A stretch of DNA of 64,000 bases from Massalongia carnosa (taxonomy: Eukaryota): contig OZ287086.1 in assembly GCA_965645245.1 (NCBI GenBank), forward strand, positions 372,001 through 436,000, written 5' to 3'. This document shows, in pieces, positions 34,279-64,000 of this stretch. The first letter of the stretch is position 1, and the number at the start of each line of letters is the position of its first letter. Under the pieces are notes generated by a model that ran no database searches, was not told the DNA's origin, and was given only the letters and a program-made list of their open reading frames with translations. Position numbers and translations under genes: made by a program.

Positions 34279-34845
34279 TCCGTGCTCATATCCCAAAACG
34301 GCTGAGGATTTTTCTCTACAATTCGATCATGACGAACGTTGTCTAAAACGGCCTGTTCTACCTTAGACGTCACTTTAGGAGGACGTCCTGAACGACATGC
34401 ATCTTCTACGTATTCTACTTTCAATATTCGCGAAACAGTGGGATCATATCCTCGATCTCGTGCCTTGCGTTTGAGATAGCTGATAGACTGAGTAGAGACT
34501 CCGATGACTGCTTGAACGACTTTAGCTGTTATGCCGTGTTCAATCAAGGATAATGCTTGTAACTTTTGACCAATGGTCAGACTATTGTTCTGAGTTCGTG
34601 ATGTCATGATATGAAGCAAATAAAATTTTACTTGATGATATTTGATAAATAACAGATGCTGCACAGGTTGAAATGTACAATATCTATAAAAACCTCTATT
34701 TAATTTTTAGCGTCCTATCTGAACGACGCTAAAAATGCACTAATGCACGCTACCAAGAACTTTTTGTGTCATCCTCCGTAGAGGCGAACGCCTCGGCACG
34801 AGGTAAGCGAGAGACTAGCCAACGATTAGTAAGCTAACTTGTTTC

Positions 34846-37800
34846 TGTTGAACAAAAAATCAACCAGGCATACGGCAGCGGGATGCAGGAGAAGAGGGTC
34901 TAGGGCTATCAAGGATAGGCAAAGAGAAGTGCTTGGCAAACGTGATGCAGGTACTCCGTATTTCCAGTAAAGATACTCCAAATTTAGCTATCTGCTGAAC
35001 TGAATTCTGAACGACTGAATAGCTAAATTACATGAGGAATCATCGTCTCTTTATACTGCTTGAGGGCCTCCATCTCGGCCTATATCAAATGCATGAACCT
35101 GCTTCCTTTGAACCTTTTCAGCTGGGCAAAATACACCTCGTTGCTGACCGGAGACACCGAGACACTCAGTGATCATGAACAGCTGAATTGCCTCCGAAAT
35201 GTAGCATTCTTGCTGCATACTTTTGCCTCCTCGTAGTTGCCGAAGTCGTGCCGATATCTGAAGCTTTTCGCATATAGCATATGATTGCCTAATCTGGAAA
35301 TTAGTAAGCAGGAGGCAAAAGAACCTCGGTCGCAAATATTCAGGTATCTCGGCAAATTCCAATACTCCCACTCCGAGTATCTGAATGGCTTCATACCCTC
35401 GCATGCCCAAAAACGAATTAAAAGAAATCCTCCGCGTTCTGCCCATCTGAACACGATGCTCAGGTAGGCCATGGGCCCTCGTGGGCCGATGTGGTTGCGA
35501 TAAACTATCGCTAACTCTCTAGGTTTCCTTCATACCTAGTAGAGCACGTCCGCGTTCAAAAGCCGCCTTGGTCAAAGGCTTTGTTAGAATATCAGCTGCC
35601 ATCTCGTTGGTGGGAACATAGCTGATTTGGATAAGTCCATCCTCCACTACCTCGCGAATGTAGTGATATTGCACATCGATGTGCTTCGTACGTGAGTGGT
35701 TTTCGGGGTTTCTGACGAGTGCAATGGCCCCTTGATTATCACACCGAAGTTCGATGGCTCCTCTCTCTCTAATCCCAAGTTGCTGTAGCCAGCGACCTGC
35801 CCAAACGAGCTGTTTTGAAGCCTGGCATTGCGAAACGTATTCGGCTTCAGTGGTTGAGGTAGAAACAGTGCGTTGTTTCTTGCTGGTCCAGATGCATGCT
35901 GAATTTGCAAGAAGCAAAGTCATGCCATGTGTGGATTTTCGATTTTCCGAGGAATCGGCATAAGCCGCATCCGCGTACCCTATGGGGGTGTTGCCTTTCG
36001 GGCTAGGGCCATAGACTAGGCCTAAGCTTGCAGTGCCTTTCAAATACCTAATTACTCTATCCAGCGCAACTCGATGCTTTACACCTGGATCGTGACTGAA
36101 TTGACTTAACTTGCCAATTGCAAAGGCTATGTCAGGTCTGGTACTTGTCATGGCATACATTAGACTTCCTATCCTTTTCTGATACTCCAGTTGGTCGGTC
36201 CTGGGTTCCGTGGGGGTGGCGGCAGTCAGTGCTGCATATCCATCAATAGGAGTTGAAACTGGGTGTGCATTTTCCATCCCATATTTCGAAATGAAGTTGT
36301 TGATGTATACTGACTGATCTAGTGTTAGATTTCTAGATTTTCGGTTCCTCCGCACTCGCATTCCCAGGATATGGTCCACCTCTCCCAAATCCTTCATCTT
36401 ATACTCCCGTTTTAGCTGTGCCTTGACTGCATTGATGCGGGATATTTTGGCGGCAAAGATGAGAAGATCATCGACGTATACTGAGATAATGACGCCGGCT
36501 TGGAGGTTTATGAACACACAATTGTCGGCTGAGATTGGTTCGAATCCAATGGATCTCAGATACCTTCTGAACTTTCTGCTCCAGATTCGGCCGGATTGCT
36601 TGAGACCATAAAGACCTTTTTGCAGTAGAAGGGCCTTATTTTTTCCGTTCGGAACATCCATTCCCTCTGGTATTTCCATGTAGATTTCTTCTTCCAACTC
36701 ACCTTCTAAATAGGCATTTGAAACGTCCATTTGATGTGCTTCCAGGTTCAGTAACGCAGTAATTGCCATTAAAATTCTCAGAGATTCGAACCTTAAGGTG
36801 GGTGCAAATGTCTCTTCGTAATCAATGCCATATTTCTGACTGAAACCTCTAGCACAAAGTCTGGCCTTGAACCGCTCAATAACTGCGGCGGATGTGTATT
36901 TGATTTTGAACACCCATTTCGAAGTTATTAGCTCACGGTTTTTCGGCCTCGGCACGATGATAAACGTGCGTTTCCACCGCAGCGCTTCCAGCTCTTCTTC
37001 CGTTGCCCCCCTCCATTCACGGCGATTTGGTCCAGTCATGGCTTCCTTATAGGTAGCCGGTTCAGGCAATCGAGCTATATAAACGATAGCCATTGGTGCT
37101 TTTGACTTATCAAATGCCTTGGAGTCATACGGCTTTTTCGTGCGTCTTGACCGGGAAGATGCTGCGGAAACAAGCTGTTGATTTTTCGGTGGGAGCGTGG
37201 CTTTCTGCCCCCTTTTTGAATTCTGTGCTGGCTCTGGCGAATTTCGCCCAGTAGTCGGCAGACCTTCGAATTCTGGCGCTCGGATTTCAGTTTCCGAGGT
37301 CTCGTTTCCTTCTTCTTGATTTCCCGGAGTTTCGCGATTTCCGGGAATATCGCCTTCATTCAGTGAGGGATTCTCTGCACCCTCAATACTTTCTCCGGGA
37401 ACATTATCGCCTAGAACTATTGCGTCGTCATTTTCTAGGTTTGATGTTCCCTGAAACTCTAAGGCTGTCTCAGGGTTGGTAAGTTTGTGCGTAGGAACTC
37501 CTTGTTCCTCATCCGGTTCGTAGTCCGAATCTGCAACATCTAACTCCCACTCACCCGGTTCCACTGGTGCGTTCAGTAAAGGGCCTCCTGGCCAATCCTC
37601 GAAAAACTTCACTGAGGTATGTACTCCCACTGTTTTCGTATCAGGATTATGCACCTTATACTGTCTTGATGACCGGAATCCAACGAGAATTCCCTGATGG
37701 GATACCTTATCCATCTTCGCACGAGTTTCGCTAGGAACGTGCACGTGTACGAGGCATCCATAGGTCCTTATATGGCCTACCTCTGGCTTCTTCTGGTGCC

Positions 37801-40800
37801 ACATCTCATATGGGGTCTTCATATCAAACCGCTTCGACGGAAGCCGATTCTTCAGATAATTGGCAGTCAGTACTGCGTCCCCCCAAAATGACCTAGGCAA
37901 CCCAGACCACATCTGCATCGCTGATACCATCTGCATCAGCGTTCTATTGAGTCTTTCTGCAACCCCATTCTGCTCAGGGGTATAGGCCGTGGTAAACTCC
38001 ACCACTATTCCTTCCGGCAATATCGTTCTAGCCAGTTTTTCATACTCCAAAGCGTTATCACATCGCAAGGTCCTGATTCGCTCCCCTGTCTCGATCTCGG
38101 CACGATTTTTGAACATCCGAAAGAGCTTTTCTAGCTCGCTCCTGGCCCCGAGGTAAACATCCGAGTAGCCGGTGGCTTCGTCGGTGAAGGACACAAAATA
38201 CTTGGTCCCCTGGTTATTGGGCACCCGATATGGACCCCAAAAGTCTGAATAGACTCGTTCCAGACGGCGGGTAGCCCGTTCTGGTGGGTTTCGGTTGATT
38301 ATTCGAGTCATTTTCGTCTGAGTACATGTGATGCATTTGCATTCCTTCTCATGGTCATGTAACTTGGCTCCCACTCCATTAGTGGCTTCATGGAGGACAG
38401 TGAGTCTGTATGCTCCCACGTGCCCCATGCGGCCATGCCATAGTAGGTATCGGTCTCTTTCTAATTGGGACCGAGTGCTAATTGCTTTTTTGTTGTCTTT
38501 TGCATTTTCTGGCATTCTTGGCAAATTCTGATTTCCGGACGATCTTTCGCTGATATTTGGATCAGAAGTAATAGGGATTTCTTCCTCGGGATCCTCAGTG
38601 GCTATCAGGGCCACTCCGCTTCCTGCGGATCGGAGCAGGTACGTTTTTCCCACCAAAAACCCGGTGGCGAGGCAGGTACCTCTCCTCAAAATTTCGACGC
38701 AACTCAATCCAAACCTCACAATCATTCCTCTAGCTTGTAATGCCGAAATTGACAACAAATTCGCATCCAGCTCAGGTACGTATAACACTTCTGTGAGTTT
38801 GAACTTCTTATCCTCCAGCTCCACAGCCACATCACCTTTACCAGGTGATTTAATCTTTACCCCATTAGCTATCGTCACCCAACTTACCTGCAGTGTAAAG
38901 TTTGTGAATAGCTTCCGATTGGCCGTCATATGGCGACTGGCCCCTGAGTCAATAATCCACTCATTCGGGGGTATTACTTTGGAAGTGAGTTTTGCCACTC
39001 TAGCAAAACTCTTAGGGGAGGAGCACTTCTGGGAAGTGCGATAGCGCGCCCCATTGTTGACGTAGTCGGTGTAATCCTCATGGTCGCTCTGGTCCACGTG
39101 GTCAATGGCCATGCGACCGTACACTGACTCGTCGTCGCTATCCTCACTGTCGCTGTCCCTTGTGCCGGATGCTTTGCGTGCAAGGTGACCTCCTCGGCCC
39201 TTGCCACGTCTGCCATCCCTTAACTTTTCCTCTCCCTTACCTCCGTCCTTGGCTTTCTTGCCCTTTGATTGGGCCGTGCTGGCGGTATCTTCATTGTAGG
39301 CCTTGCCTTCGTCACTGGCAAGCCATTCAAAACACTTGGTTTTCACGTGACCAGGTTTCTTGCAGTGGTAACATTTCCCCTTAAACTTATAGGGCTTGGC
39401 GGAGACCTTATTAGCGATTTCATAGGGGGTCCCCGCGTTATCTCTGGCCATCTGCTCGATTTCCTTATATTTTTCAATCACCTTCCGAAACGTGAGGTTT
39501 TCCAAGTCGTTTAATTGCAATTTCACCGCATTATACCGCTCGTGATCCACCGAATCCATTAGGACTAGGGCCATCATGATATCGGATGGCTTCACCTCTG
39601 GGTTGATATTTGCGATGATATCCCTCATATCTTCTAGCTCTGCTGCAGTCTCATCCACTCCTTCCTCTGCCTTGGCCTTATACGTATGAAATCGGCGGAG
39701 CATGGGGACCAAGCGTGTCCTGGAGTCTTTGCCGTGAATTTCCTTTTGGGCATCCCATACCCCTTTGGCAGATTGCTGCAGTTGCACATGCTTCTGCTGC
39801 CTTTCATCCATGGCTCCCATGAGGATGGTGATTGCTGTGGCGTCATCAAAGATCCACGAGTCTCTATCCAAAGGCATGCTTCCTGGTGGTTCGAGTATCT
39901 CTCCACTGACTACTTTCCAGAGCCCTTTGGCAATTAAGTGCACCTTCAAAAGGTGGGACCACAGCCTGTAGTTGTCGCTAGTAAGTTTTGGCAGTTTTAC
40001 TTCACCTTTCACACCGGCACCCCTTTTATATCCCCCATCAATGGCTGTCATAGCCGCTAGGCCCTTGTCCTTTGATGAGGAGGCCTTGCTTGCCTCGGGG
40101 GTGGTGGATGCCCTCATGGCACCTCCGGTATCTTGGCTGTCTTCTGAGGCAGACATTTTGGTGGTGAAGGAGTCGTCCTATTCGAGTGCCGAAATGGATA
40201 GCTAGGAGTTCAAACAAGCACACGGGCTATATCCCCTAAGATAAAAGATCTAGTGATAAATACTCCTGGATTTGAATAGAGTGCTATCCGGGCTCATAAC
40301 CTGTTGAACAAAAAATCAACCAGGCATACGGCAGCGGGATGCAGGAGAAGAGGGTCTAGGGCTATCAAGGATAGGCAAAGAGAAGTGCTTGGCAAACGTG
40401 ATGCAGGTACTCCGTATTTCCAGTAAAGATACTCCAAATTTAGCTATCTGCTGAACTGAATTCTGAACGACTGAATAGCTAAATTACATGAGGAATCATC
40501 GTCTCTTTATACTGCTTGAGGGCCTCCATCTCGGCCTATATCAAATGCATGAACCTGCTTCCTTTGAACCTTTTCAGCTGGGCAAAATACACCTCGTTGC
40601 TGACCGGAGACACCGAGACACTCAGTGATCATGAACAGCTGAATTGCCTCCGAAATGTAGCATTCTTGCTGCATACTTTTGCCTCCTCGTAGTTGCCGAA
40701 GTCGTGCCGATATCTGAAGCTTTTCGCATATAGCATATGATTGCCTAATCTGAAAATTAGTAAGCAGGAGGCAAAAGAACCTCGGTCGCAAATATTCAGG

Positions 40801-40820
40801 TATCTCGGCAAATTCCAATA
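34846..40820 (-). mobile_element. Full-length, apparently intact Ty1/Copia element with TA...CA LTR ends
   Basis: 519-bp LTRs 34846-35364 and 40302-40820 (1 substitution seen). TSD GTTTC at 34841-45 and 40821-25. PBS GGTTATGAGCCCGG at 40288-40301. PPT GGAGTGGGAG at 35365-74. Confidence 0.97.
35519..40156 (-). CDS. Copia gag-pol polyprotein, 1545 aa, uninterrupted
   Basis: CYHCKKPGHVKTKC, IDSGAS, YSDFWG/RCDN/NGVAER, YVDDLL, RNase H ADAAY..EAEY..CDN. Confidence 0.96.
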   Translation of the reverse strand: MSASEDSQDTGGAMRASTTPEASKASSSKDKGLAAMTAIDGGYKRGAGVKGEVKLPKLTSDNYRLWSHLLKVHLIAKGLWKVVSGEILEPPGSMPLDRDSWIFDDATAITILMGAMDERQQKHVQLQQSAKGVWDAQKEIHGKDSRTRLVPMLRRFHTYKAKAEEGVDETAAELEDMRDIIANINPEVKPSDIMMALVLMDSVDHERYNAVKLQLNDLENLTFRKVIEKYKEIEQMARDNAGTPYEIANKVSAKPYKFKGKCYHCKKPGHVKTKCFEWLASDEGKAYNEDTASTAQSKGKKAKDGGKGEEKLRDGRRGKGRGGHLARKASGTRDSDSEDSDDESVYGRMAIDHVDQSDHEDYTDYVNNGARYRTSQKCSSPKSFARVAKLTSKVIPPNEWIIDSGASRHMTANRKLFTNFTLQVSWVTIANGVKIKSPGKGDVAVELEDKKFKLTEVLYVPELDANLLSISALQARGMIVRFGLSCVEILRRGTCLATGFLVGKTYLLRSAGSGVALIATEDPEEEIPITSDPNISERSSGNQNLPRMPENAKDNKKAISTRSQLERDRYLLWHGRMGHVGAYRLTVLHEATNGVGAKLHDHEKECKCITCTQTKMTRIINRNPPERATRRLERVYSDFWGPYRVPNNQGTKYFVSFTDEATGYSDVYLGARSELEKLFRMFKNRAEIETGERIRTLRCDNALEYEKLARTILPEGIVVEFTTAYTPEQNGVAERLNRTLMQMVSAMQMWSGLPRSFWGDAVLTANYLKNRLPSKRFDMKTPYEMWHQKKPEVGHIRTYGCLVHVHVPSETRAKMDKVSHQGILVGFRSSRQYKVHNPDTKTVGVHTSVKFFEDWPGGPLLNAPVEPGEWELDVADSDYEPDEEQGVPTHKLTNPETALEFQGTSNLENDDAIVLGDNVPGESIEGAENPSLNEGDIPGNRETPGNQEEGNETSETEIRAPEFEGLPTTGRNSPEPAQNSKRGQKATLPPKNQQLVSAASSRSRRTKKPYDSKAFDKSKAPMAIVYIARLPEPATYKEAMTGPNRREWRGATEEELEALRWKRTFIIVPRPKNRELITSKWVFKIKYTSAAVIERFKARLCARGFSQKYGIDYEETFAPTLRFESLRILMAITALLNLEAHQMDVSNAYLEGELEEEIYMEIPEGMDVPNGKNKALLLQKGLYGLKQSGRIWSRKFRRYLRSIGFEPISADNCVFINLQAGVIISVYVDDLLIFAAKISRINAVKAQLKREYKMKDLGEVDHILGMRVRRNRKSRNLTLDQSVYINNFISKYGMENAHPVSTPIDGYAALTAATPTEPRTDQLEYQKRIGSLMYAMTSTRPDIAFAIGKLSQFSHDPGVKHRVALDRVIRYLKGTASLGLVYGPSPKGNTPIGYADAAYADSSENRKSTHGMTLLLANSACIWTSKKQRTVSTSTTEAEYVSQCQASKQLVWAGRWLQQLGIRERGAIELRCDNQGAIALVRNPENHSRTKHIDVQYHYIREVVEDGLIQISYVPTNEMAADILTKPLTKAAFERGRALLGMKET

Positions 40821-41339
40821 GTTTCCACGTCGACTCTTTTTCTTTTTCTTTTTCTGTTTCTGTCTGGTTCACAAATGCACAAAGTCTCGTCGTGTCGTTT
40901 CCATCGCAACCACAATGCATCCTGACCATGACGAGCTTGTCTGAGACGAAATAACGGTTTGATCTGATGAAACACAACGCCGATATTATCAGGGTACACG
41001 GTGTTCAAATCCCTCCAGCGGCCAGATTCAGTCCATGCATGGAGGGGTATGGGGCGCAACCAACCGACCACCCGACCTACTGACCGCCTCGAGGTGCGAT
41101 CATATTATCTCTCGTCGGATGTAGCCTTAAGCCTTATTTGCCCTTTCTGCGGCTGAACTTAACGCGCATCCCTTCGAGTTACTGGTGGCCCCCGCCACGA
41201 GGACGAATTCTTCAATCTTGTGTTGGAATAGTATTTTTAGTCCTCCTGGCATCGGCTTCCCCATCACGTAGAGTTGGAAGGGTAGAGTCCTCTCGTCGTG
41301 CAAAGATTTTTGGACGATCTGTCAAGCCGAATAGAGTCT

Positions 41340-44300
41340 ATGTCGGACATTGTGAGAAAAGATAATTATGATTTGCAGGCCGAGTGGGACAGGGTCTTCA
41401 GATCATATCTCAAAACGACCGGGGCAGATCTTACGAAAAGTTCAAATCTCTCTCCCGACGAGGTTGTCGGCCTGATAAAAGCCAAGGAAGAGAAAGATGA
41501 AGCCGACGGTGCAAAGTTCAGGGTTGCAAAGGATGTTATTGGCAAGTTGCTCACAACCATTGAAACCCTTGGGAGTATTGCGGCGCAGGGCGCCGGTATG
41601 GTACTGTTCTCCCTGTCTCTTTACATCCGCGAAGGCGGTTGCTAAGCTGTATAGGTCTTTGGGCCTAGCACCATATGTTTCAATGCGGTGTCCTACTTGA
41701 TTGTAGCGGGGCGTAATTATCGGAATATTTTTAGCAGCTTGACAGAGCTATTCAGTCGAATTTCGGATGTTCTTGAGCGTTTCTCGATTTATCTGCGGAT
41801 GAAAGACGATGTGGACGTGGCGTTGAAGAGGATTATTCACCAACTCCTTCTGAGTTTTGTCAGCATTTGTGAGCTCTCGGTGAAGGTGCTTCACGGAAAC
41901 AAAGTTCTCAAATTTTTAAAAGTCTTCGCGTTCAACGAAGATGACGGGATTAAGTGTGAGCTGGAAAAGCTGAAAATCCTTGCCGAAAAAGAGAGTCAGA
42001 TGAAAGGCACCCTGACCCTCGAATCAGTCAAAGCGAATGAGCGAAAAGTTATAGCTGGCTTTGCTGAGACCAAGGAAGGATTACGAGGCGTGAGAGGCGA
42101 CATGGCGGGCATGTCTTCTACATTGGGCACAATTGCTGAGTCCGAAAAAAAACGGGAAGCGCTTTCAGTTGCTGAGAAGCAGTTTGAAAAAATTAAAGGT
42201 GCCTTGGGCAATCCAGAGGAGTCGTACCGGGATATTTATCAAAGCTTCTTGACCATCAAGCTTCCGAACACTGGAGAATGGCTTCGAAGAGAACCCAGTT
42301 TTATGTCGTGGGCTGATCAGCAATCAGACTCGGAGCCGATTTTTTGCATTTCGGGCAATGAAGGCTATGGTAAATCAGTCTTGATGTCCACCGTCATCCA
42401 AGCGCTCAGTAAGAAGTACCCTGCAGGACAAGACGACTTCTCGCGGACTTCTATAGCGTATTATTACTTCCAAAAGGACGTCAAGAGCTCGCAGTCATCG
42501 GATAGGGGCCACCAATCTATCGAGAAGGCTTTGAAGGCTTTGGCATTGCAGATTGCTCAAAATGATCCTGTATATCAAAAACATCTTGCGACGTCCATTA
42601 AAACCTTCGAGGACTTGAGCGAGGTTGAGCATCTATGGAGAAATTTGTTCACAAAGTTTTCCCAGATTGATGCAACCTTTTTCCTCCTTCTCGATGGCAT
42701 CGATCAGATAGACGAAAGACATGAAAATATCTTGCTTCAGCTTTTAAGGGATGTTCAGGCACGACCTAGAGTTAAGGGTTTGCTTCGCATACGGTTATTC
42801 TTGTCAACAAGAGTCGACAAGTTAAGAGAAACGAGAAAATTTCTGGAAAAACCATTCTCATCTATTGACCTGGCTCGGAAAAATGGAGATGATATCCAAC
42901 ATTTCGTAAAATTCAAAATGGATAAAATGAAAATACTGAGTGTATCGTCCACTCAAGTGCAAGGCTTGAGAGATGAAATCTTTGCTGATCTTACCGAAAA
43001 TGCTCAGGGAGATTTTGTGAACGTGGATCTTTTACTCAAAGAAATCGGTAGCATGCAGAGACCTTTCGAGATTCGTGCGGTGCTGGCCAAGGCCAAAGCA
43101 GGAGAAAATCTATCTGATACAATAGCTCGAAAGATAGAGCGATGCAACGAACTCCTCGGAGAACGAGACATACAAGATCTTAATGAGCTTTTAACCTGGG
43201 TCATCAACTCATGTCGACCACTAACACTGAGAGAGTTAGAGGCCGTTTTGTATCTGAAAAACAAAACTAGCGGTGCATCAATGGAACCTCTGCGCGAGCA
43301 GATCCAAGACCGATATTCTACCTTCTTCCGTGTATCTGATGAAGCCGACCTCTCCAAAGCCTCGGGTCCTGTTGTCACTCTAGTCTCGGATTCAATCATA
43401 GATCATTTTCGAAAGTCTGCCAAAACCGTAGATATCGAGGACTCACCAGCGGATGAAAGCATCAACGAATCAGAAGTCAAAATTATCAAAAGGTTCCTCG
43501 AATCGGTTTGCGATCCCGACTTGTTCACCAGATTCGGCTTCGAAGGGTTTTTCAAGCGCAAGTTGGCTAAAAACACCGCAGTAATCGCTGTTGACCTTGA
43601 TGCTGCGCCATTGAAACTCTTAATGGACTGCCTTCTTGTAATCAACGACGAAGTTGACGAAATGACAGAACCTCTCGTTGATCATGCAGCACTGTGGTTT
43701 CCTGAATACCTTCAACAAGTAGACCTTTCTTCGGCTCATCCGACCACCAAGACTGCCATTGGAAAGCAACTATTACCATTGTTCACTAGCAACCGACATA
43801 TCGAAAGATGGTGGAAAAAGAATGATTTTGGTTTGCGTTACCGGTGGCTATATAATGATAACTATATTGATCAAGTTTTAAACTGGCTCAAAGATGCAGC
43901 AGTTATTAAAGAACTTACTAACGAGGAGAAAGAATGGATCAAAAGTCTGACCTCCAACTCTGATCTCGACGTCGATCTCCTGATGCCTCTTACAAAGTTC
44001 CTCGCAAGCAAGTGGCTGCAAAGTACGGATTGGGGCACAGTTCTCCCCTTTATATGCGTTCATGGTTATATCATCAAGGTCCGTATCTCAGTGTCCTCTG
44101 GAAATAATCGCTTAGAACTTATGAACAGATCAAAAGTCGTAAGAATCCAGACCTTATTCATCGACTTGACAATGATCCAAATCCAATTGATATCAAGCCG
44201 TCCGACATTTACGAGGCAGCGGAGTGGGCTGCTAAACAACTAGAAGTAAATCAGCCAAGTTATCAGTGGTTGTGCTCTCTAGGCAAAACGTTTGCTTCGT

Positions 44301-45982
44301 GTGAGTATTGGGAAGATGCGATACGTCAATACAAGGTTGCTTCAGCTATGACCTCTGAATCTATGAAAGCGGACCTTGGTCTAGCTGAAGCATATATGGG
44401 TCAGGAAAAGTGGCAGCTCGCCATTCAAACTCTGACAACGCTAGGTGAAGCATTACAATCCGATATAAGCAGAGACGATAATGAATCTCTGCTTCGAAAT
44501 GTCTTCCGCTACCTTGCCAGTTGCTACGCGAATCTCGGAGAAGACACCAAAGCCATGGAGATATATCAAAAAGTTCTTCAAGATCGATCAGATGATTATG
44601 ACACCGCCGTCGACATTCTGAGGCTTCAAAACAGGCAGGGCAAGTTCACGGAAACAATCGAGTTCCTGCAGATGTTGAGGACGCACACAGACATAGAAAC
44701 CGGTCTCGATAGACTCACTCAATTCTATCATGAGTTTGCAGGCGTGATCACTTATCATGATACCATCTTCGAGGCTGCGGAAAAGGTCAACTGCCTCGAT
44801 TTTATCAAGAAATGCTATGAGACAGCTATTGAGGCCGCAAAAGCGAAGCAGGTATCGGTCGGTATATCACAAAGACAACAGATGGTAGTTGTTTACAACT
44901 TGCTTTCGTATTACTTCGCAGATCTACTATTTCAACATCATGTTGATGAAAGCGAAAGGATGCGCGCAATCTATCTCTGGGAACAAATTAGGAAACCAAG
45001 TGAGATTTCAGAAGATACGATTTTAGATTACCAGCTGTTAACTGCCCAAAAACTCTCTTTGGTGTATTACGAAAAGATGAAGGAAGCTACTCCAGACTCC
45101 GAAATCGTTGTCGAAAACATCAATAAGCTAATTCAGCTCTCGATTAATGAAAATTTCAAGATGATCTCGTACGATCACCTACTAACGGATTCCAAGATGC
45201 TGCTTGGTCGTTATTATCAATCGATCAACCGTAAAGACGAGGCGAGAGGATACTTAAGAGGAGCTGTTAAAACTGCTCTCGACCTCTTATCAGATGACGA
45301 TGTCGCCAACGACTGGCAAGGATACACGATACTGAAAGGAACATTGATGTACTTTGGTGACGATACCAATGCACTCGCTGCTTGGTCTTTAATCCTCCCA
45401 ACCACCGCTGATTCTGAGACTATCGAATATGGTCTGGAAAACGCAGTTGATGCGGTTTCAGGCTATGCTTTGCAGGGACCAAGTAGTGAAACGGTCACAT
45501 ATTCTCGGGTCAACCCTCTTGCGATCAAGCAAGAATCAATCGCACAAGATGCGGTACCTTCAACTAGTATTCTCCATGCGTGTGAACTGGAGAACCCTGG
45601 AAACCCCTCCAATGAGGCTGATTTAGGTTCTCTCATATCTCCTCCCAAACTGAAGGGACCGATCGGGCTGTCTTGCGATGGTAGATGCGGCACTAATTGG
45701 ACGTTCGCCGACGACATTTATGTTTGCAAAGACTGCCTAGATATCCAATTTGACTTCAACTGCTGGAGGTTACTCCAGGACGGTCAACTCTCCAAGAAAG
45801 TGTGCAATCCCAAGCACGAGTTTCTCCATGTGCCCAAATTCGACATGGAAGAAGCCAGAAGAGTGGGCAAAGAGAGGGTCAGAGTAGATGGGGAGATTGT
45901 GTTGATTACGGAATGGTTGAGGGGGATTAGGAAGGACTGGGGGCTTTTAGTGGAAACGGATAATACGAAAATCAGTAATTAG
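41340..45982 (+). CDS. NLR-like STAND protein copy 1: Goodbye-like N-terminus, NACHT, TPR, ZZ-like zinc finger (about 1512 aa; exons 41340-41600, 41655-44078, 44129-45982)
   Basis: GT..AG introns join the three ORFs in frame. P-loop GNEGYGKS, Walker B FFLLLDGIDQ, TPR-like helices, CDGRC..CKDC..C..CNPKH. Confidence 0.88.
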
Positions 45983-48197: not shown

Positions 48198-48710
48198 TAC
48201 CACCCACATCGCTCGGGTCGCCTTAAGCTAGGCGAACCGAGCGATACGGATACTCCCGTGACTCCGTACATTACTTCGTACTCCGTACTCTGTCCCAAAA
48301 CGCCCTTTCGCTTGCATGCGTCCAATGCAACAATCAAACCTGGCAACCTGGATCTGATACAATCCAAGTCATAACAAGAACTTCTTCTGTCGTAGTAGTA
48401 AGCTACCTTGTTTCCACGTCGACTCTTTTTCTTTTTCTGTTTCTGTCTGGTTCACAATGCACAAAGTCTCGTCGTGTAGTTTCCATCGCAATCACAATGC
48501 ATCCTGACCATGACGAGCCTGTCTGAGACGAAATAACGGTTTGATCTGATGAAACACAACGCCGATATTATCAGGGTGCACGGTGTTCAAATCCCTCCAG
48601 CGGCCAGATTCAGTCCATACATGGGGTAGGGGGCGCAACCAACCGACCCGACCTACTCCGTACTTCCCGCCTCGAGGTGCGATCATATTATCTCTCATCG
48701 GATGTAGCCT

Positions 48711-49594
48711 TAAGCCTTATTTGCCCTTTCTGCGGCTGAACTTAACGCGCATCCCGTCGAGTTACTGGAACCCTAACCCTCAAGCCTTATTTGCCCTTTC
48801 TGCGGCTGAACTTAACGCGCATCCCGTCGAGTTACTGGAACCCTAACCCTCAAGCCTTATTTGCCCTTTCTGCGGCTGAACTTAACGCGCATCCCGTCGA
48901 GTTACTGGAACCCTAACCCTCAAGCCTTATTTGCCCTTTCTGCGGCTGAACTTAACGCGCATCCCGTCGAGTTACTGGAACCCTAACCCTCAAGCCTTAT
49001 TTGCCCTTTCTGCGGCTGAACTTAACGCGCATCCCGTCGAGTTACTGGAACCCTAACCCTCAAGCCTTATTTGCCCTTTCTGCGGCTGAACTTAACGCGC
49101 ATCCCGTCGAGTTACTGGAACCCTAACCCTCAAGCCTTATTTGCCCTTTCTGCGGCTGAACTTAACGCGCATCCCGTCGAGTTACTGGAACCCTAACCCT
49201 CAAGCCTTATTTGCCCTTTCTGCGGCTGAACTTAACGCGCATCCCGTCGAGTTACTGGAACCCTAACCCTCAAGCCTTATTTGCCCTTTCTGCGGCTGAA
49301 CTTAACGCGCATCCCGTCGAGTTACTGGAACCCTAACCCTCAAGCCTTATTTGCCCTTTCTGCGGCTGAACTTAACGCGCATCCCGTCGAGTTACTGGAA
49401 CCCTAACCCTCAAGCCTTATTTGCCCTTTCTGCGGCTGAACTTAACGCGCATCCCGTCGAGTTACTAGAACCCTAACCCTCAAGCCTTATTTGCCCTTTC
49501 TGCGGCTGAACTTAACGCGCATCCCGTCGAGTTACTGGAACCCTAACCCTCAAGCCTTATTTGCCCTTTCTGCGGCTGAACTTAACGCGCATCC
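48711..49594. repeat. 70-bp tandem array x12.6; each unit ends in the telomere motif AACCCTAACCCT
   Basis: Units start at 48711, 48781 ... 49551; near-identical (one G>A near 49467). Confidence 0.97.
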
Positions 49595-50012
49595 TGGGGG
49601 TGCGCGGGAAGACACCCATGCGATAGTCTCAACCGGTCCAATCATGTAATAATAATTAGTTTGACGAACGTGGCTTGATCGAGGTGGGCTATAGAATAAA
49701 GAGCCCTTCGCCCACCTCTTTCGGAGGGCCACTAATCAATCTATTGATTACACTCCACCTACTGCTATTCCATAGCGACTCCCATTCTATTGTCCTACCA
49801 CTACTGTAGAGCCATATAGTCACACTGTTCGTACTTCGCCCCACATATTGATCAGTGGTGGCCCCCGCCACGAGGACGAATTCTTCAATCTTGTGTTGGA
49901 GTCGTATTTTTAGTCCTCCTGGCATCAGCTTCCCCATCACGAAAACTTGGAAGGGTAGAGTCCTCTCGTCGCGCAAAGATTTTTGGACGATATGTCAAGC
50001 CGAACAGAGTCT

Positions 50013-53000
50013 ATGTCGGACATTGTGAGAAAGGATGATTATGATTTGCAGGCCGAGTGGGACAGGGTCGTCAGATCATATCTCAAAACGACCGGGAAAG
50101 ATCTTACGAAAAGTTCATATCTCTCTCCCGAAGAGGTTGTCGGCCTGATAAAAGCCAAGGAAGAGAAAGATGAAGCCGACGGTGAAAAGTTCAGGGAGGT
50201 CAAGGATGTTGTTGGCAAGTTGCTCAGAACCATTCAAACCTTTGGGAATATTGCGGCGCCCTGCGCCGGTATGGTACTGTTCTCCCTGTCTCATTACATC
50301 CGCGAAGGCGGTTGCTGAGCTGTATAGGTCTTTGGGCCTAGCACTATATGTTTCAATGCGGTGTCCTACTTGATTGAAGCGGGGCATAATTATCGGAATA
50401 TCTTTAGCCGCTTGACAGAGCTATTCAGTCGAATTTCGAATTTTCTTGAGCGGTTCTCGATTTATCTGCGGGAGAAAGACGATGTGGACGTGGCGTTGAA
50501 GAGGATTATTCATCAACTCCTTCTGAGTTTTGTAAGCATTTGTGAGCTCTCGATAAAGGTGCTCCACGGACACGGAAAAAAATTTGTCAACTTTTTAAAA
50601 GTCTTCGCGTTCAACGAAGATGACGGGGTTAAGTGTGAGCTGGAAAAGCTGAAAATCCTTGCCGAGAAAGAGAATCAGATGAATTGCACCCTGACCCTCG
50701 AATTAACCAAAGCGAATGGTCGAAAAGTTACAGCTGCCTTTGCTGAAACCAACTCTACATTGGGCACAATTGCTGAGTCTGAAAAAAAACGAGAAGCGCT
50801 TTTAGTTGCTGAGAAGCAGTTTGAAAAACTTAAAGGTGCTTTGGGCAATCCAGAGGAGTCGTACCGGGATATTTATCAAAGCTTCTTGGCTATCAAGCTT
50901 CCGAACACTGGAGAATGGCTTCAAAGAGAACCCAGTTTTATGTCGTGGGCTGATCAGCAATCAGACTCGGAGCCGATTCTTTGCATTTCGGGCAATGAAG
51001 GCTATGGTAAATCAGTCTTGATGTCCACCATCATTCAAGTGCTCAAGAAGAAGTACCCTGTAGGACAAGACGACTCGCGGACTTCTATAGCGTATTATTA
51101 CTTCCAAGAGGACGTCAAGAGCTCGCAGTCATCGGATAGGGACCACCGATCTATCGTGAAGGCTTTGAAGGCTTTGGCATTGCAGATTGCTCAAAATGAT
51201 CCTGTATATCAAAGACATCTTGCGACGTCTATCAAAACCTCCGAAGACTTGAGCGAGGTCGAGCATCTATGGAAAAATTTGTTCACAAATTTCTCCCAGA
51301 TTGATGCAACCTTCTTCCTCCTTCTCGATGGCATCGATCAGATAGACGAAAGACATGAAAATATCTTGCTTCAGCTTTTAGGGGATATTCAGGCACAACC
51401 TAGAGTTAAGGGTTTGCTTCGCATACGGCTATTCTTATCAACAAGAGTCGACAAGTTGAAAGAAAGGAGAAAAGATCTGGAAAAACCTTTGTTATCTATT
51501 GACCTAGCTCGGAAAAATGGAGATGATATCCAAAAGTTCGTAAACTTCAAATTGGATAATATGAAAATACTGAAAGGATCGTTCACTAAAGTAAAAAAAG
51601 GCCTGAGAGATGAAATCTTTGCTGCTCTTACCGAAAATGCTCAGGGAGATTTTGTGAACATGGATCTTTTACTCAACGAAATCGGCAGCATGCAGAGACC
51701 TATCGAGATTCGTACGGTGCTGACCAAGGCCAAAGCAGGAGAAAATTTATCTGATACAATAGCTCGAAAGATAGAGCAATGCAACAAACTTCTCGGAAAA
51801 CGAGACATAGAAGATCTTAATGAGCTTTTGACCTGGGTCATCAACGCATATCTACCACTAACACTGAGAGAGTTAGAGGCTGTTTTGTATCTGAAAAACA
51901 AAACTAGCGATGCATCAATGGAACCTCTGCGCGAGCAGATTCAAGACCGATATTCTACTTTCTTCCGTGTATCTGATAAAGCCGACCCCTTCGAAGCCTC
52001 AGATCCTGTGGTCACTCTAGTCTCGGATTCTATCATAGATCACTTTCGAAAGTCTACTAAAACCGTAGATATCGAGGACTCCCCAGCGGATGACAGCATA
52101 GAAGTCAAAATTATCAAAAAGTTCCTCGAATCGGTTTGCGATCCCGACTTGTTCACCAGATTCGGCTTCAAAGGGTTTTTCGAGCACAATTTGGCTAAAA
52201 ACACCGCTGTTATCACTGTTGACCTTCATGCTGCGCCATTGAAACTCTTAGTGGACTGCCTTCATATAATCAACGACGAAGTTGACGAAATGACCGAACC
52301 CCTCGCTGATCATGCAGCACTATGGTTTCCTAAATACCTTCAACAAGTAGACCTCTCTTCGGCTGATCCGACCACCAAGACTGCCATTGGAAAGCAACTA
52401 TTACCATTGTTCAATAGCAACCGACATATCGAAAGATGGTGGAAAGAGGATGATTTTTGTTTGCGTTACCTGTGGCTATATAATGATAACTATGTTGATC
52501 TAGTTTTAAACTGGCTCAAAGATGCAGCAGTTATTAAAGAACTTACTAACGAGGAGAAAGAATGGATCAAAAGTCTGACTTCCAACTCTGATCTCCTGAT
52601 GCCTCTTACAAAGTTCCTCGCAAGCAAGTGGCTGCAAAGTACGGATTGGGGCACATTCCAACCCTTTGTATGCGTTCATAGTTATATCATCAAGGTCCGT
52701 ATCTCAGTCTCCTCTGGAAGATAGTTGCTTAGAACTTATGAACAGATCAAAAGTCGTAAGAATCCAGACCTTGTTCGTCGACTTGACAATGATCCAAATC
52801 CAATTGATATCAAGCCATCCGACATTTACGAGGCAGCGGAGTGGGCTGCTAAACAGCTAGAAGTAAATCGGCCAAGTTATCAGTGGTTGTGCTGTCTAGG
52901 CGAAACATTTGCCACGTGTGAGAAGTGGAAAGATGCGACACGTCAATACAAGGCTGCTTCAGCTATGACCTCTGAATCTATGGAAGCGGACCTTGGTCTA

Positions 53001-54590
53001 GCTAAAGCATATATGGGTCAGAAAAAGTGGCAGGTCGCCATTCAAACTCTGACCACGCTAGGTGAAGCAATGCAAGTCGATACTAGACAAGACGATAATG
53101 AATCTCTACTTCGACATGTCTTCCGCAACCTTGCCATTTGCTACGAGAATCTCAGAGAATACACCAAAGCCTTGGAGATATATCAAAAAAATTTTCTGGA
53201 TCGATCAGATGATTATGAGACCGCCGTCGACATTCTGAGGCTTCAAAACAGGCAGGGCATGTTCACGGAAACAATCGAGTTCCTGCAGAGGATGAAGACG
53301 CATAAAGACAAAGAAATCGGACTCGATAGACTAACTCAATTCTATCATAAGTTTGCAAGAGACGACACTTATCATGATACCATTCTCGAGGCTGCGGAAA
53401 AGGTCAAATGCCTCGATTTTATCAAGAAAAGCTATGAGATAGCTATCGAGGCCGCAAAAGCGAAGCAGGTATCTGATAGAATATCGCAAAGAAAAGGGAT
53501 GATATTTGTTCACAACTCGCTTTCGTATTTCTTCGCAGATCTACTATTTCATCATCATGTTGACGAAAGCGAAAGGATACGCGCAATCTATCTCTGGGAA
53601 CAAATTAGGAAACCAAGTGAGATTTCAGAAGATATTACTATTCCAGATTATCAGCTGTTAGCTGCCCAAAAACTCTCTTTGGTGTATTACGAAAAGATGA
53701 AGGAAGCTGCTCCAGACTCCGAAATCGTTGTCGAAAACATCAATAAGCTAATTCAGCTCTCGATTAATGAAAATTTCAAGATGATCTCGAGCTATTACCT
53801 AGTAATAGATTCGAAAATGCTGCTTGGTCGTTATTATCAATCGATCAACCGTAAAGACGAGGCGAAACGTTACTTAAGAGGAGCTGTTAAAACTGCTCTC
53901 GACCTTTTATCAGATGACGATGTCGCCAACGACTGGCAAGGATACACGATACTGGGACGAACGTTGATGTACTTTGGCGACGATAGCAATGCACTCGCTG
54001 CTTGGTCTTTAGTCCTTCCGACCACCGCTAATTCTGAGACTATCGAATATGGTGTGGAAAACGCAGTTGATGCGGTTTCAGGCTACGCTTTACGGGGGCC
54101 AAATAGCGAAACGGTCACACATTCTCAGGCCGACCCTGTTGCGATCAAGCAAGAATCAATCGCAGCAGATGAGGCCCGTTCAACTAGTATTCTCCGTGCG
54201 TGCGTATTGGAGAGCCCCTCCAATGAGGCTGATTTAGGTTCTCCCACATCTCCCTCCAAACCGAGGGGACCGATCCTGCTGTTTTGCAATGGCTTATGCG
54301 GCACTGGTTGGACGTTCGCCGACGATATTTATGTTTGCAAAGACTGCCTGAATACCGAATTTGACTTCGATTGCTTGAGGTTACTCCAGGACGGTCAACT
54401 CTTCAAAAAAGGGTGCAATCCCAAGCACGAGTTTCTCCATGTGCCCAAATTCGACATGGAGGAAGCCAGAAGAGTGGGCAAAGAGAGGGTCAGAGTAGAT
54501 AGGGAGATTGTGTTGATTACGGAATGGTTGAGGGGGATTAGGAAGGACTGGGGCTTAGTGGAAACGGATAATACGAAAATCAGTAATTAG
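50013..54590 (+). CDS. NLR-like STAND protein copy 2 (about 1490 aa; exons 50013-50273, 50328-52694, 52746-54590)
   Basis: Close paralog of copy 1 with the same intron positions and an open frame throughout. Confidence 0.88.
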
Positions 54591-61544: not shown

Positions 61545-64000
61545 ACAAGATCTTAACGAACTTTTGACCTGGGTCATCAACGCATATCAACCACTAACAC
61601 TGAGCGAGTTAGAGGCCGTTTTGTATCTGAAAAACAAAACTAGCGACGCATCAATGGAACCTCTGCGCGAGCAGATCCAAGACCGATATTCGACTTTCTT
61701 CGGTGTATCGGATGAAGCCGAACTCTCCAACGCCTCGGGTCCTGTGGTCACTCTAGTCTCGGATTCTATCATAGATCACTTTCGAAAGTCTACTAAAACC
61801 GTAGATATCGAGAACTCCCCAGCGGATGACAGCATAGAAGTCAAATTATCAAAAGTTCCTCGAATTGGTTTGCGATCCCGACTTGTTCACAAGATTCGGC
61901 TTCGAAAGGTTTTTCAAGCGCAAGTTGGCTAAAAACACCGCTGTTATCGCTGTTGACCTTCATGCTGCGCCATTGAAACTCTTAGTGGACTGCCTTCAAA
62001 TAATCAACGACGAAGTTGACGAAATGACAGAACCCCTCGCTGATCATGCAGCACTGTGGTTTCCTGAATACCTTCAACAAGTAGACCTCTCTTCGGCTGA
62101 TCCGACCACCAAGACTGCCATTGGAAAGCAACTATTACCATTGTTCACTAGCAACCCACGTATGGAACGATGGTGGAAAGAGGGTTATTTTATTTTGCGT
62201 TACCTGCGGCTACGTTTTGAGTTGGCTCAAGGATTCAGCAGTTATTAAAGAACTTACTACCGAGGAGAAAGAATGGATCAAAAGTCTGACTTCCAACACT
62301 GATCTCGACGTCGATCTTCTGATGCCTCTTACAAAGTTCCTCGCAAGCAAGTGGCTGCAAAGTACGGATTGGGGCATATACTCCTCCTTTGTATGCGTTC
62401 ATACTCATATCATCAAGGTCCGTATCTCAGTCTCCTCTGGCAGATAATCGCTTAGAACTTATGAACAGATTAAAAGTCGTAAGAATCCAGACCTTGTTCA
62501 TCGACTTGACAGTGATCCAAACACAATTGATATCAAGCCATCGGACATTTACGAGGCAGCGGAGTGGGCTGCTAAACAGCTAGAAGAAGTAAATCAGCCA
62601 AATTATCAGTGGTTGTGCTCTCTAGGCAAAACGTTTGCTGCGTGTGAGTATTGGGAAGATGCGATTCGTCAATACAAGGCTGCTTCAGCTATGACCTCTG
62701 AATCTATGAAAGCGGACCTTGGTCTAGCTAAAGCATATATGGGTCAGGAAAAGTGGCAGCTCGCCATTCAAACTCTGATAACGCTAAGTGAAGCATTGCA
62801 AGTCGATGCAAGACGAGACGATAATGAATCTCTACTTCCAGATGTCTTCCGCTACCTTGCCAGTTGCTACGAGAAGCTGGGAGAGTACACCAAAGCCATG
62901 GAGATCCATCAAAAAAAAAGTTCAGGATCGACCGGATGATTATAAGACCGCCGTCGACATTCCGAGGCTTCAAAACAGGCAGGGCATGTTCACGGAAACA
63001 ATCGAGTTCCTGCAGATGATGAAGACGCATAAAGGCATAGAAATCGGACTCGATAGACTAACTCATTTCTATGTTTGCACCCGACGACACTTATCATGAT
63101 ATCGTTCTCGAGGCTGCGGAAAAGGTCAAATGCCTCGATTTTATCAAGAAAAGCTATGAGATAGCTATCGAGGCCGCAAAAGCGAAGCAGGTATCTGTTA
63201 GTATACCACAAAGACAAGAGATGATAGATGTTCACAACTCGCTTTCGTATTTCTTCGCAGATCTACTATTACATCATCATGTTGACGAAAGCGAAAGGAT
63301 GCGCGCAATCTATATCTGGGAACAAATTGGGAAACCAAGTGATTTTTCAGAATATACGATTTCATATTATCATCTGTTAAATGCCCAAAAACTCTTTGTG
63401 GTGTATTATGAAAGATGAAGGAAGCTGCTCCAGACTCCGAAATCGTTGTCGAAAACATCAACAAGCTAATTCAGCTCTCGATTAATGAAAATTTCAAGAT
63501 GATCTCGTACGATCACCTACTAACGGATTCCAAGATGCTGCTTGGTCGTTATTATCAATCGATCAACCGTAAAGACGAGGCGAAACGTTACTTAAGAGGA
63601 GCTGTTAAAACGGCTCTCGACCTCTTATCAGATGACGATGTCGCCAACGACTGGCAAGGATACAAGATACGGGGACGAACGTTGATATACTTTGGCGACG
63701 ATAGCAATGCACTCGCTGCTCGGTCTTTAATCCTTCCGACCACCGCTAATTCTGAGACCATCGAGTATGGTGTGGAAAACGCAGTTGATGCGGTTTCAGG
63801 CTACGCTTTACAGGGGCCAAGTAGCGAAACGGTCACACGTTCTCAGGCCGACCCTCTTGCGATCAAGCAAGAGTCAATCGCAGCAGATGAGGCCCGTTCA
63901 ACTGGTATTCTCTGTGCATGCGAATTGGAGAATCCCTCCAATGTGGCTGATTTAGGTACTCTCACATCTCCCCCCAAACTGAAGGGACCGATCGGGCTGT
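61545..64000 (+). pseudogene. NLR-like copy 3, 5'-truncated and frameshifted; runs off the window
   Basis: Homology to copy 1 from approx. 43170 onward; frameshifts near 61845-61870, 62210, 62915, 63073 and 63412. Confidence 0.9.

Follow-up and report, generated by a model that had tools for sequence, protein, structure and literature searches.

In mammals, short interstitial telomeric sequences formed at repaired breaks have their repeats aligned in register to 1-8 nt of the break end, and in some cases a target duplication or extra sequence accompanies them (Nergadze et al. 2007, PMC2246262). In the relevant part of that source, in-register seeds and target duplications mark the interstitial repeats made by telomerase. 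At yeast double-strand breaks, Ty1 replication intermediates are captured, and an LTR fragment with a replication-intermediate end is left in the break (PMC11372161). Snap-back SD-MMEJ and foldback insertions show an inverted repeat at the junction, a local templated duplication and multiple rounds of synthesis (PMC2943611, PMC11724301). Identical units parted by identical short telomere tracts are found in the MoTeR arrays, the 4-kb repeat and the MoTeR relics of Pyricularia (PMC7367193, PMC8381367) and in yeast ALT circles (PMC13287614). For the Pyricularia units, the cited passages offer both D-loop cycles and circle copying (PMC7367193, PMC8381367), and circle copying has been shown in yeast ALT (PMC13287614). 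The minimal Teb1 site is known from the HisBox / Teb1 (Tay1 family) promoter sites (PMC4839565), and proteins of the Tay1 family occur widely among ascomycetes (PMC7952879).

In this study, we analysed a window of 64,000 nucleotides from Massalongia carnosa (assembly GCA_965645245.1, contig OZ287086.1, positions 372,001 to 436,000 of the forward strand); coordinates are those of the window unless a contig is named. Upstream of the second of two NLR paralogs lies a composite scar, which appears to join a telomerase tag, a captured LTR cDNA and a local templated duplication, and which was amplified. The scar is real, and although every ingredient is known, the combination is unusual. Compared with the sequences described in PMC2246262, it is fungal, has two repeats only, carries a 43-47 bp duplication and a co-captured LTR cDNA, and has been amplified to a minisatellite. 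Unlike the Ty1 captures in the cited part of PMC11372161, it is natural and fixed, involves a self-priming Gypsy element, ends at the PBS (the plus-strand strong-stop shape) rather than at the 3'-LTR hotspot, and includes telomerase. Relative to the SD-MMEJ insertions as reported in the passages cited (PMC2943611, PMC11724301), it adds a telomerase step and gives a far longer product. The Pyricularia and yeast ALT arrays, as described there, lie at chromosome ends, are kb-sized or purely telomeric and are tied to telomere failure, whereas the present array is interstitial and has a 70-bp unit of single-copy local DNA. Its tag reads as the exact minimal Teb1 site (PMC4839565, PMC7952879), which here would have arisen by accident and stands in 12 copies. 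Among the records listed from an open-licence library there was no report of an interstitial minisatellite of local sequence plus telomere repeats, or of the combination. The array and its source are as follows.

48712..49594, plus strand: 70-bp tandem array, 12 full units plus 43 bp, with a single substitution
48712..48768, plus strand: first 57-bp unit at its native position, the left flank of the break; this flank aligns continuously to 40821-41185
48769..48781, minus strand: telomere tag (two TTAGGG repeats) plus one extra base, identical in 12 units and equal to the minimal Teb1 site
41129..41185, plus strand: empty paralogous site upstream of NLR copy 1, by sequence comparison

The units begin at 48712 with a period of 70, and the thirteenth is partial, 43 bp long, and ends at 49594. 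The sole variant is a G>A transition at 49467 in unit 11, that is, one change in 883 bp. The first 57 bp of the unit are identical to 41129-41185 at 56/57 positions, and at the search sensitivity used the unit matched only the array and the copy-1 site in the 52-Mb genome. Thus the preliminary description was right that 57 bp of each unit are local and occur once at the copy-1 site, and that they are repeated almost perfectly 12.6 times up to a partial unit. The anatomy that it gave holds, but the array does not directly rejoin the right flank, where an LTR-plus-PBS fragment (49596-49856) intervenes. Its word "promoter" for the 57 bp reflects position only, 155-211 bp before the copy-1 ATG. 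Every full unit ends with AACCCTAACCCT and one C, a base that belongs neither to the telomere repeat nor to the native sequence, which has T here. Measured from the copy-2 ATG at 50013, the array is 419-1301 bp upstream, and the site is 0.42 Mb from the nearer contig end. A dispersed subtelomeric repeat or a MoTeR-like telomere-targeting retroelement was considered for the unit and rejected on the two matching sites above and on the Rfam search, in which no structured RNA was matched at E up to 1 within 48200-50100. The unit folds weakly (-3.9 and -4.9 kcal/mol), and a small hairpin over the tag/unit joint is too weak to count.

The reality of the array was judged from contig depths in public runs. 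One study contributed three runs, from two samples, in which the bin with the unit was 2-4.5 times deeper than its neighbours (3070 versus 1441/1182, 695 versus 247/154, and 1807 versus 665/469). By rough arithmetic this rise equals 6-12 unit copies, the values being contig depths that possibly come from the assembled material. The depth was zero at 48900-49243 in all four runs, as a collapsed repeat gives, which says nothing either way. Run X5, which carries another organism label, showed no depth rise, and its depth of about 5 is too shallow to call an empty allele. No empty allele was found at the orthologous site. An assembly or library concatemer artefact would agree with the fact that no contig from the public runs spans the array, and the runs may be the assembly's own material; but the depth rise speaks against it, and a library step does not supply a telomere tag and a base change. 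We therefore give such an artefact next to no weight, and an error of the assembler in particular is unlikely.

The telomere of the species is TTAGGG, as had been assumed in the preliminary description: tracts of this repeat were found at 41/45 contig ends examined. TERT is present in the genome, and a TER candidate (C8:505655-508734, minus strand; 9-nt template) scored 55.5 bits, above the Rfam cut-off, and reads UAACCCUAAG. About 1.3 kb upstream of the Rfam TER match, on the same strand, TAACCCTAA followed by G is the only telomere-like motif of that strand at the locus. Of the 41 tracts, 18 end after TAA, and 16/18 continue with G as the TER candidate predicts (nominal p 3e-7); some of these ends are related, and the left end of C3 was parsed inside its variant array, where the true junction is also G. 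Therefore, new telomeres in this fungus appear to be seeded on ends reading CTTA. At the tag boundary, the minus strand natively reads CTTAAGG, and the tag sits on this telomerase seed with one base extra or changed. Either CTTA would have primed telomerase and one base would have been inserted, or CTTAAGG would have primed it with one bulged base that changed later. The species repeat is matched, the paralogous site is empty and the break end is in register with the template, as in telomerase-made interstitial sequences. Because of the TTAGGG telomeres, the template of the TER candidate, the extra G at 16/18 ends and the position of the tag on the same seed, the sequence gives good support to the view that the tag was made by telomerase at the break, and the earlier proposal of telomerase extension there is upheld by the register with the CTTA seed.

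The tag might instead be a captured telomere fragment or chance filler rather than telomerase synthesis in place. Telomeric DNA does occur among the templated insertions at yeast breaks in the cited part of PMC11724301, and the extra C breaks the register. However, the orientation and position fit the seed used at the informative ends, comparable seeds occupy only 0.03-0.3% of window positions, and the probability of a chance telomeric filler is 5e-5 (9-nt) or 7e-7 (12-nt). We consider this origin very improbable.

Other features of the telomeres were also observed. The 16/18 informative ends pair one base past the TER template, and 5 of them two bases, which suggests that many chromosome ends arose when breaks were healed. 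In one telomere (C3:1-670), the outer ~670 bp mixes TAACCC with a 13-nt variant repeat, whose motif occurs in 30 copies. Between the variants there are 1-7 plain repeats, the mixture lies outside ~160 bp of pure repeat, and no other end has the variant. The TER candidate accounts only for the first variant base; a second template allele, circle copying and recombination are options. Many telomere tracts lie 0.3-4.9 kb inside contig ends (L198-L235), and the tract at C20:1601640 comes after a run of N, 32 kb before the contig end; both are probably assembly overhangs.

Compared with copy 1, the whole insert spans 48769-49858 (1,090 bp). Beyond the array, it holds a 261-bp Gypsy-type LTR piece with PBS (49596-49856), and one T separates the array end from this piece.

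49596..49845, plus strand: 3' 250 bp of a ~300-bp LTR of a dispersed Gypsy-type family; the first ~50 bp are absent, and a TATA-like box at 49690 and the self-primer site at ~49729-49740 are kept
49846..49858, plus strand: 11-nt primer-binding site (PBS), then GG; native flank again from 49859
49586..49606, no strand: inverted repeat over the array/LTR joint, 9-bp stem with 8 Watson-Crick pairs, 3-nt loop, -9.5 kcal/mol

Plus-strand strong-stop cDNA has this form, an LTR with its PBS and no further sequence, and Tf1 copies its self-primer into the plus strand. The LTR family is common, with 40 matches scored among 63 candidates. Its other copies have TG...CA ends and 5-bp target duplications, and paired LTR copies flank RT, RNase H and integrase in Gypsy order (Pfam on neighbouring frames). 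The PBS is complementary over 10 bp to a site within the LTR, and this partner site is exact in 22/25 listed LTR rows, some loci being listed twice. Pairing of the PBS to the own element marks Tf1-type self-priming in the cited part of PMC4600332, and with the RT-RNaseH-integrase order it points to a putative self-priming donor family. At 10/10 other LTR-PBS junctions the sequence continues into internal sequence, and of the 11 junctions this one alone breaks off after the final PBS base (13 pattern matches were obtained, and 2 unrelated ones were left out). A random deletion would end at exactly this base in about 1-4 of 10,000 cases. The GG after the PBS is compatible with a copy of the primer's 5' end and also with a 3-bp TGG target duplication, so the target duplication at the insert is none or 3 bp. 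Because the piece consists of LTR and PBS and ends exactly at the last PBS base, it looks like a captured plus-strand strong-stop-type cDNA of a self-priming Gypsy element.

In such a common family, a full element could also have integrated normally, with two later deletions leaving the LTR-PBS piece beside an unrelated minisatellite. The piece differs from an ordinary integration or a solo LTR: the first ~50 bp are missing, the PBS is present, and a target duplication of at most 3 bp takes the place of the 5-bp duplication expected at the LTR end. Moreover, one of the deletions would need a breakpoint that coincides with the PBS end and lies no more than 3 bp from the target site, and we regard this course of events as extremely doubtful.

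The array/LTR joint is without direct microhomology and falls in the hairpin loop. The joint stem was reached by 51/18,970 possible unit-by-LTR joints and its energy by 14/6,324 sampled ones (p 0.002-0.003), in a test picked after the joint had been inspected. In the cited part of PMC2943611, snap-back synthesis leaves an inverted repeat across the junction. The inverted repeat over the present joint fits such synthesis.

The two parts of the insert differ in divergence. Of the 250 bp of the LTR piece, 7 positions carry a base found in no more than 20% of 39 other copies, and at 4 of these the base is private; among the other copies the median number of such sites is 5. The nearest of the 39 copies is 3.2% away. 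A whole-genome scan for the donor LTR, with a 31-nt stretch holding three rare alleles and at most 2 mismatches, matched only its own locus. With 6-7 rare substitutions in 250 bp, against a single one in the 883 bp of the array (Fisher p 2e-4 to 6e-4), the divergence of the LTR piece is about 20 times that of the array. If the array were as old as the LTR piece and never homogenised, 21-25 changes would be expected, against the one observed; a similar divergence is seen between the LTRs of the youngest Copia in the window (1 in 520). These data suggest one of two things: a long interval passed between the capture and the amplification or homogenisation of the array, or the strain lacks the donor LTR.

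The age contrast argues against one recent all-in-one event, that is, the earlier model with cDNA capture added and the LTR copied from a diverged element since lost from the strain. Such an event would be the simplest account of the unit identity, and the lone variant is a transition. However, the rare alleles are in none of the 39 copies, the scan matched only the own locus, and the 5'/3' LTR pairs of the family differ by 2.7-8.1% (5 pairs), so the family was apparently not recently active here. We consider a single recent event improbable.

We favour, with a probability of roughly 55%, a reading in two stages: one old complex double-strand-break repair left a 1.6-unit seed, which was expanded later. 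In the old stage, a break would have occurred between 48768 and 49859 in the copy-2 upstream region. One minus-strand 3' end from the right flank would have copied the strong-stop-type cDNA, joined by its PBS end, and after a snap-back hairpin it would have copied 43-47 bp of the resected left end up to the telomerase seed. Telomerase RNA, as a third template, would have added 1.5-2 repeats at the CTTA(AGG) seed, and end-joining would have closed the break and left the 1.6-unit seed. In the recent stage, the tagged unit would have been amplified or homogenised to 12.6 copies from a tagged template, by D-loop cycles, unequal exchange or a popped-out circle. Within this reading, the anatomy, the LTR and PBS identity, the telomere and template sequences, the seed match and the contrast in divergence are observed, and we infer the strand order, the snap-back, the timing and the amplification route. 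Copying of a tagged template is required because the tags, the odd C included, are identical in 12/12 units; repeated telomerase rounds for each unit are ruled out by the same identity. The partial last unit is also expected from the 43-47-bp seed duplication, and short telomere motifs favour tandem amplification in Pyricularia according to the cited passages (PMC8381367, PMC7367193).

Several points weigh against two stages. Over 43 bp the first unit does not differ from the last, although two units as old as the capture should show about 2.4 differences (P 0.09, or 0.26 when the odd C counts as a substitution in a 47-bp overlap). Expansion from 1.6 to 12.6 units through a 43-47-bp exchange needs several steps, or a circle anyway. 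A donor LTR missing from the strain could erase the age contrast. The Pyricularia amplifications in the cited sources are subterminal and (TTAGGG)2 tracts proved stable in them, whereas the present site is far inside its contig. An intermediate state of the array was not found in any second isolate.

Part of this evidence also fits a rolling circle that made the array directly. In that case, telomerase would have lengthened a 57-61-nt strand released from the left end, the strand would have become a 70-nt circle, and synthesis primed by the complementary overhang would have gone round it 12.6 times. This would have happened at the time of the old capture, with turnover keeping the units alike since then, or recently, when a second break opened next to an LTR piece already in place. 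The 12 identical tags, the partial last unit and the identity of the first and last units agree with this, and circle copying yields star-like unit arrays in yeast ALT in the cited part of PMC13287614. Identical head-to-tail units with a partial end are expected of rolling-circle copying but are not specific to a circle. Circularisation would proceed without a favourable structure (circular folds +0.7 and +2.0 kcal/mol), and since the size quoted for duplex bending is ~100 bp, a circle as small as this would have to be single-stranded. If a second break was involved, two breaks within ~50 bp would be needed, and no other tagged array was found in the genome. A circle as the direct maker of the array is thus unlikely, while the circle variants taken together form a tentative account, clearly less probable than the two-stage reading. 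Of the mechanism first proposed, the repair of a break at the site, the local 57 bp and the telomerase tag stand. The 70-nt circle is a possible route but is not singled out, since D-loop cycles and unequal exchange would also copy a tagged template, and the patching back at the same site leaves out the captured LTR-PBS piece, which looks ~20 times older.

The insert stands before the second of two NLR genes.

41340..45982, plus strand: NLR copy 1 (Goodbye - NACHT-type - TPR), with an open frame once two canonical introns (54, 50 bp) are taken out
50013..54590, plus strand: NLR copy 2 (Goodbye - NACHT-type - TPR), which follows the insert, with an open frame once two canonical introns (54, 51 bp) are taken out; an in-frame ATG is also at 49992

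Both copies look intact, because each gives a full open frame after the two predicted introns are removed. Pseudogenes were considered and rejected: the copy-2 stop and the copy-1 frameshift lie in the same candidate intron. A third NLR paralog at 61545-64000 is 5'-truncated and 89-91% identical to copies 1 and 2. A young Copia at 34845-40820, with LTRs differing at 1 of 520 bp and a 1552-aa frame, lies 520 bp upstream of the copy-1 ATG. With this Copia before copy 1 and the insert before copy 2, both paralogs therefore have altered upstream regions.

The array contains AGGGTTAGGGTT in 12 copies, and as far as sequence goes it agrees with the earlier suggestion of clustered telomere-binding-protein sites upstream of an immune-type gene. 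The LTR piece is oriented toward NLR copy 2, and no ATG lies between its likely start at 49729 and 49992. Thus 12 putative Teb1/Tay1-type sites and a putative LTR promoter likely precede an apparently intact NLR. Fragility of the tags is not expected, because two-repeat tracts are stable in Pyricularia in the cited part of PMC7367193. Should telomere proteins bind the array, or should transcription start from the LTR, the expression of duplicated fungal NLRs could diversify fast. We find it doubtful, as one complete chain, that a released, telomerase-tagged strand formed a ~70-nt single-stranded circle that rolled into a minisatellite at its own site, that two reverse transcriptases (telomerase and, by its product, Gypsy RT) met in one scar, and that the 12 Teb1/Tay1 sites and the LTR promoter re-wire an intact NLR.

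The locus captures, in nature, the birth of a minisatellite from single-copy DNA where a break was repaired, and the neighbouring empty paralog serves as a control. It would also record an internal break at which telomerase acted but did not complete a telomere, and where a retrotransposon replication intermediate became part of the scar as well. Since it is one event with a hypothetical function, its weight is limited.

The genome was searched for further cases. A two-tag pattern, which misses about a quarter of short tags, gave 38 matches, of which 11 were the array itself, 26 telomeric and 1 unrelated. Among 47 interstitial single tags checked, from 100 of 119 matches listed, no tag-bounded duplication was confirmed; the one flagged was rejected as a 145-bp repeat with the motif in only 1/4 units. 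In other genomes, a metagenome scan gave 4 matches, all short (19-23 bp) and due to chance. The scar looks like a rare one-off repair and not like a new mobile element. Five interstitial telomere tags of 17-22 nt elsewhere in the genome (L152, L160, L173, L174 and L179) are without flanking duplication and are candidates for ordinary telomerase-made insertions.
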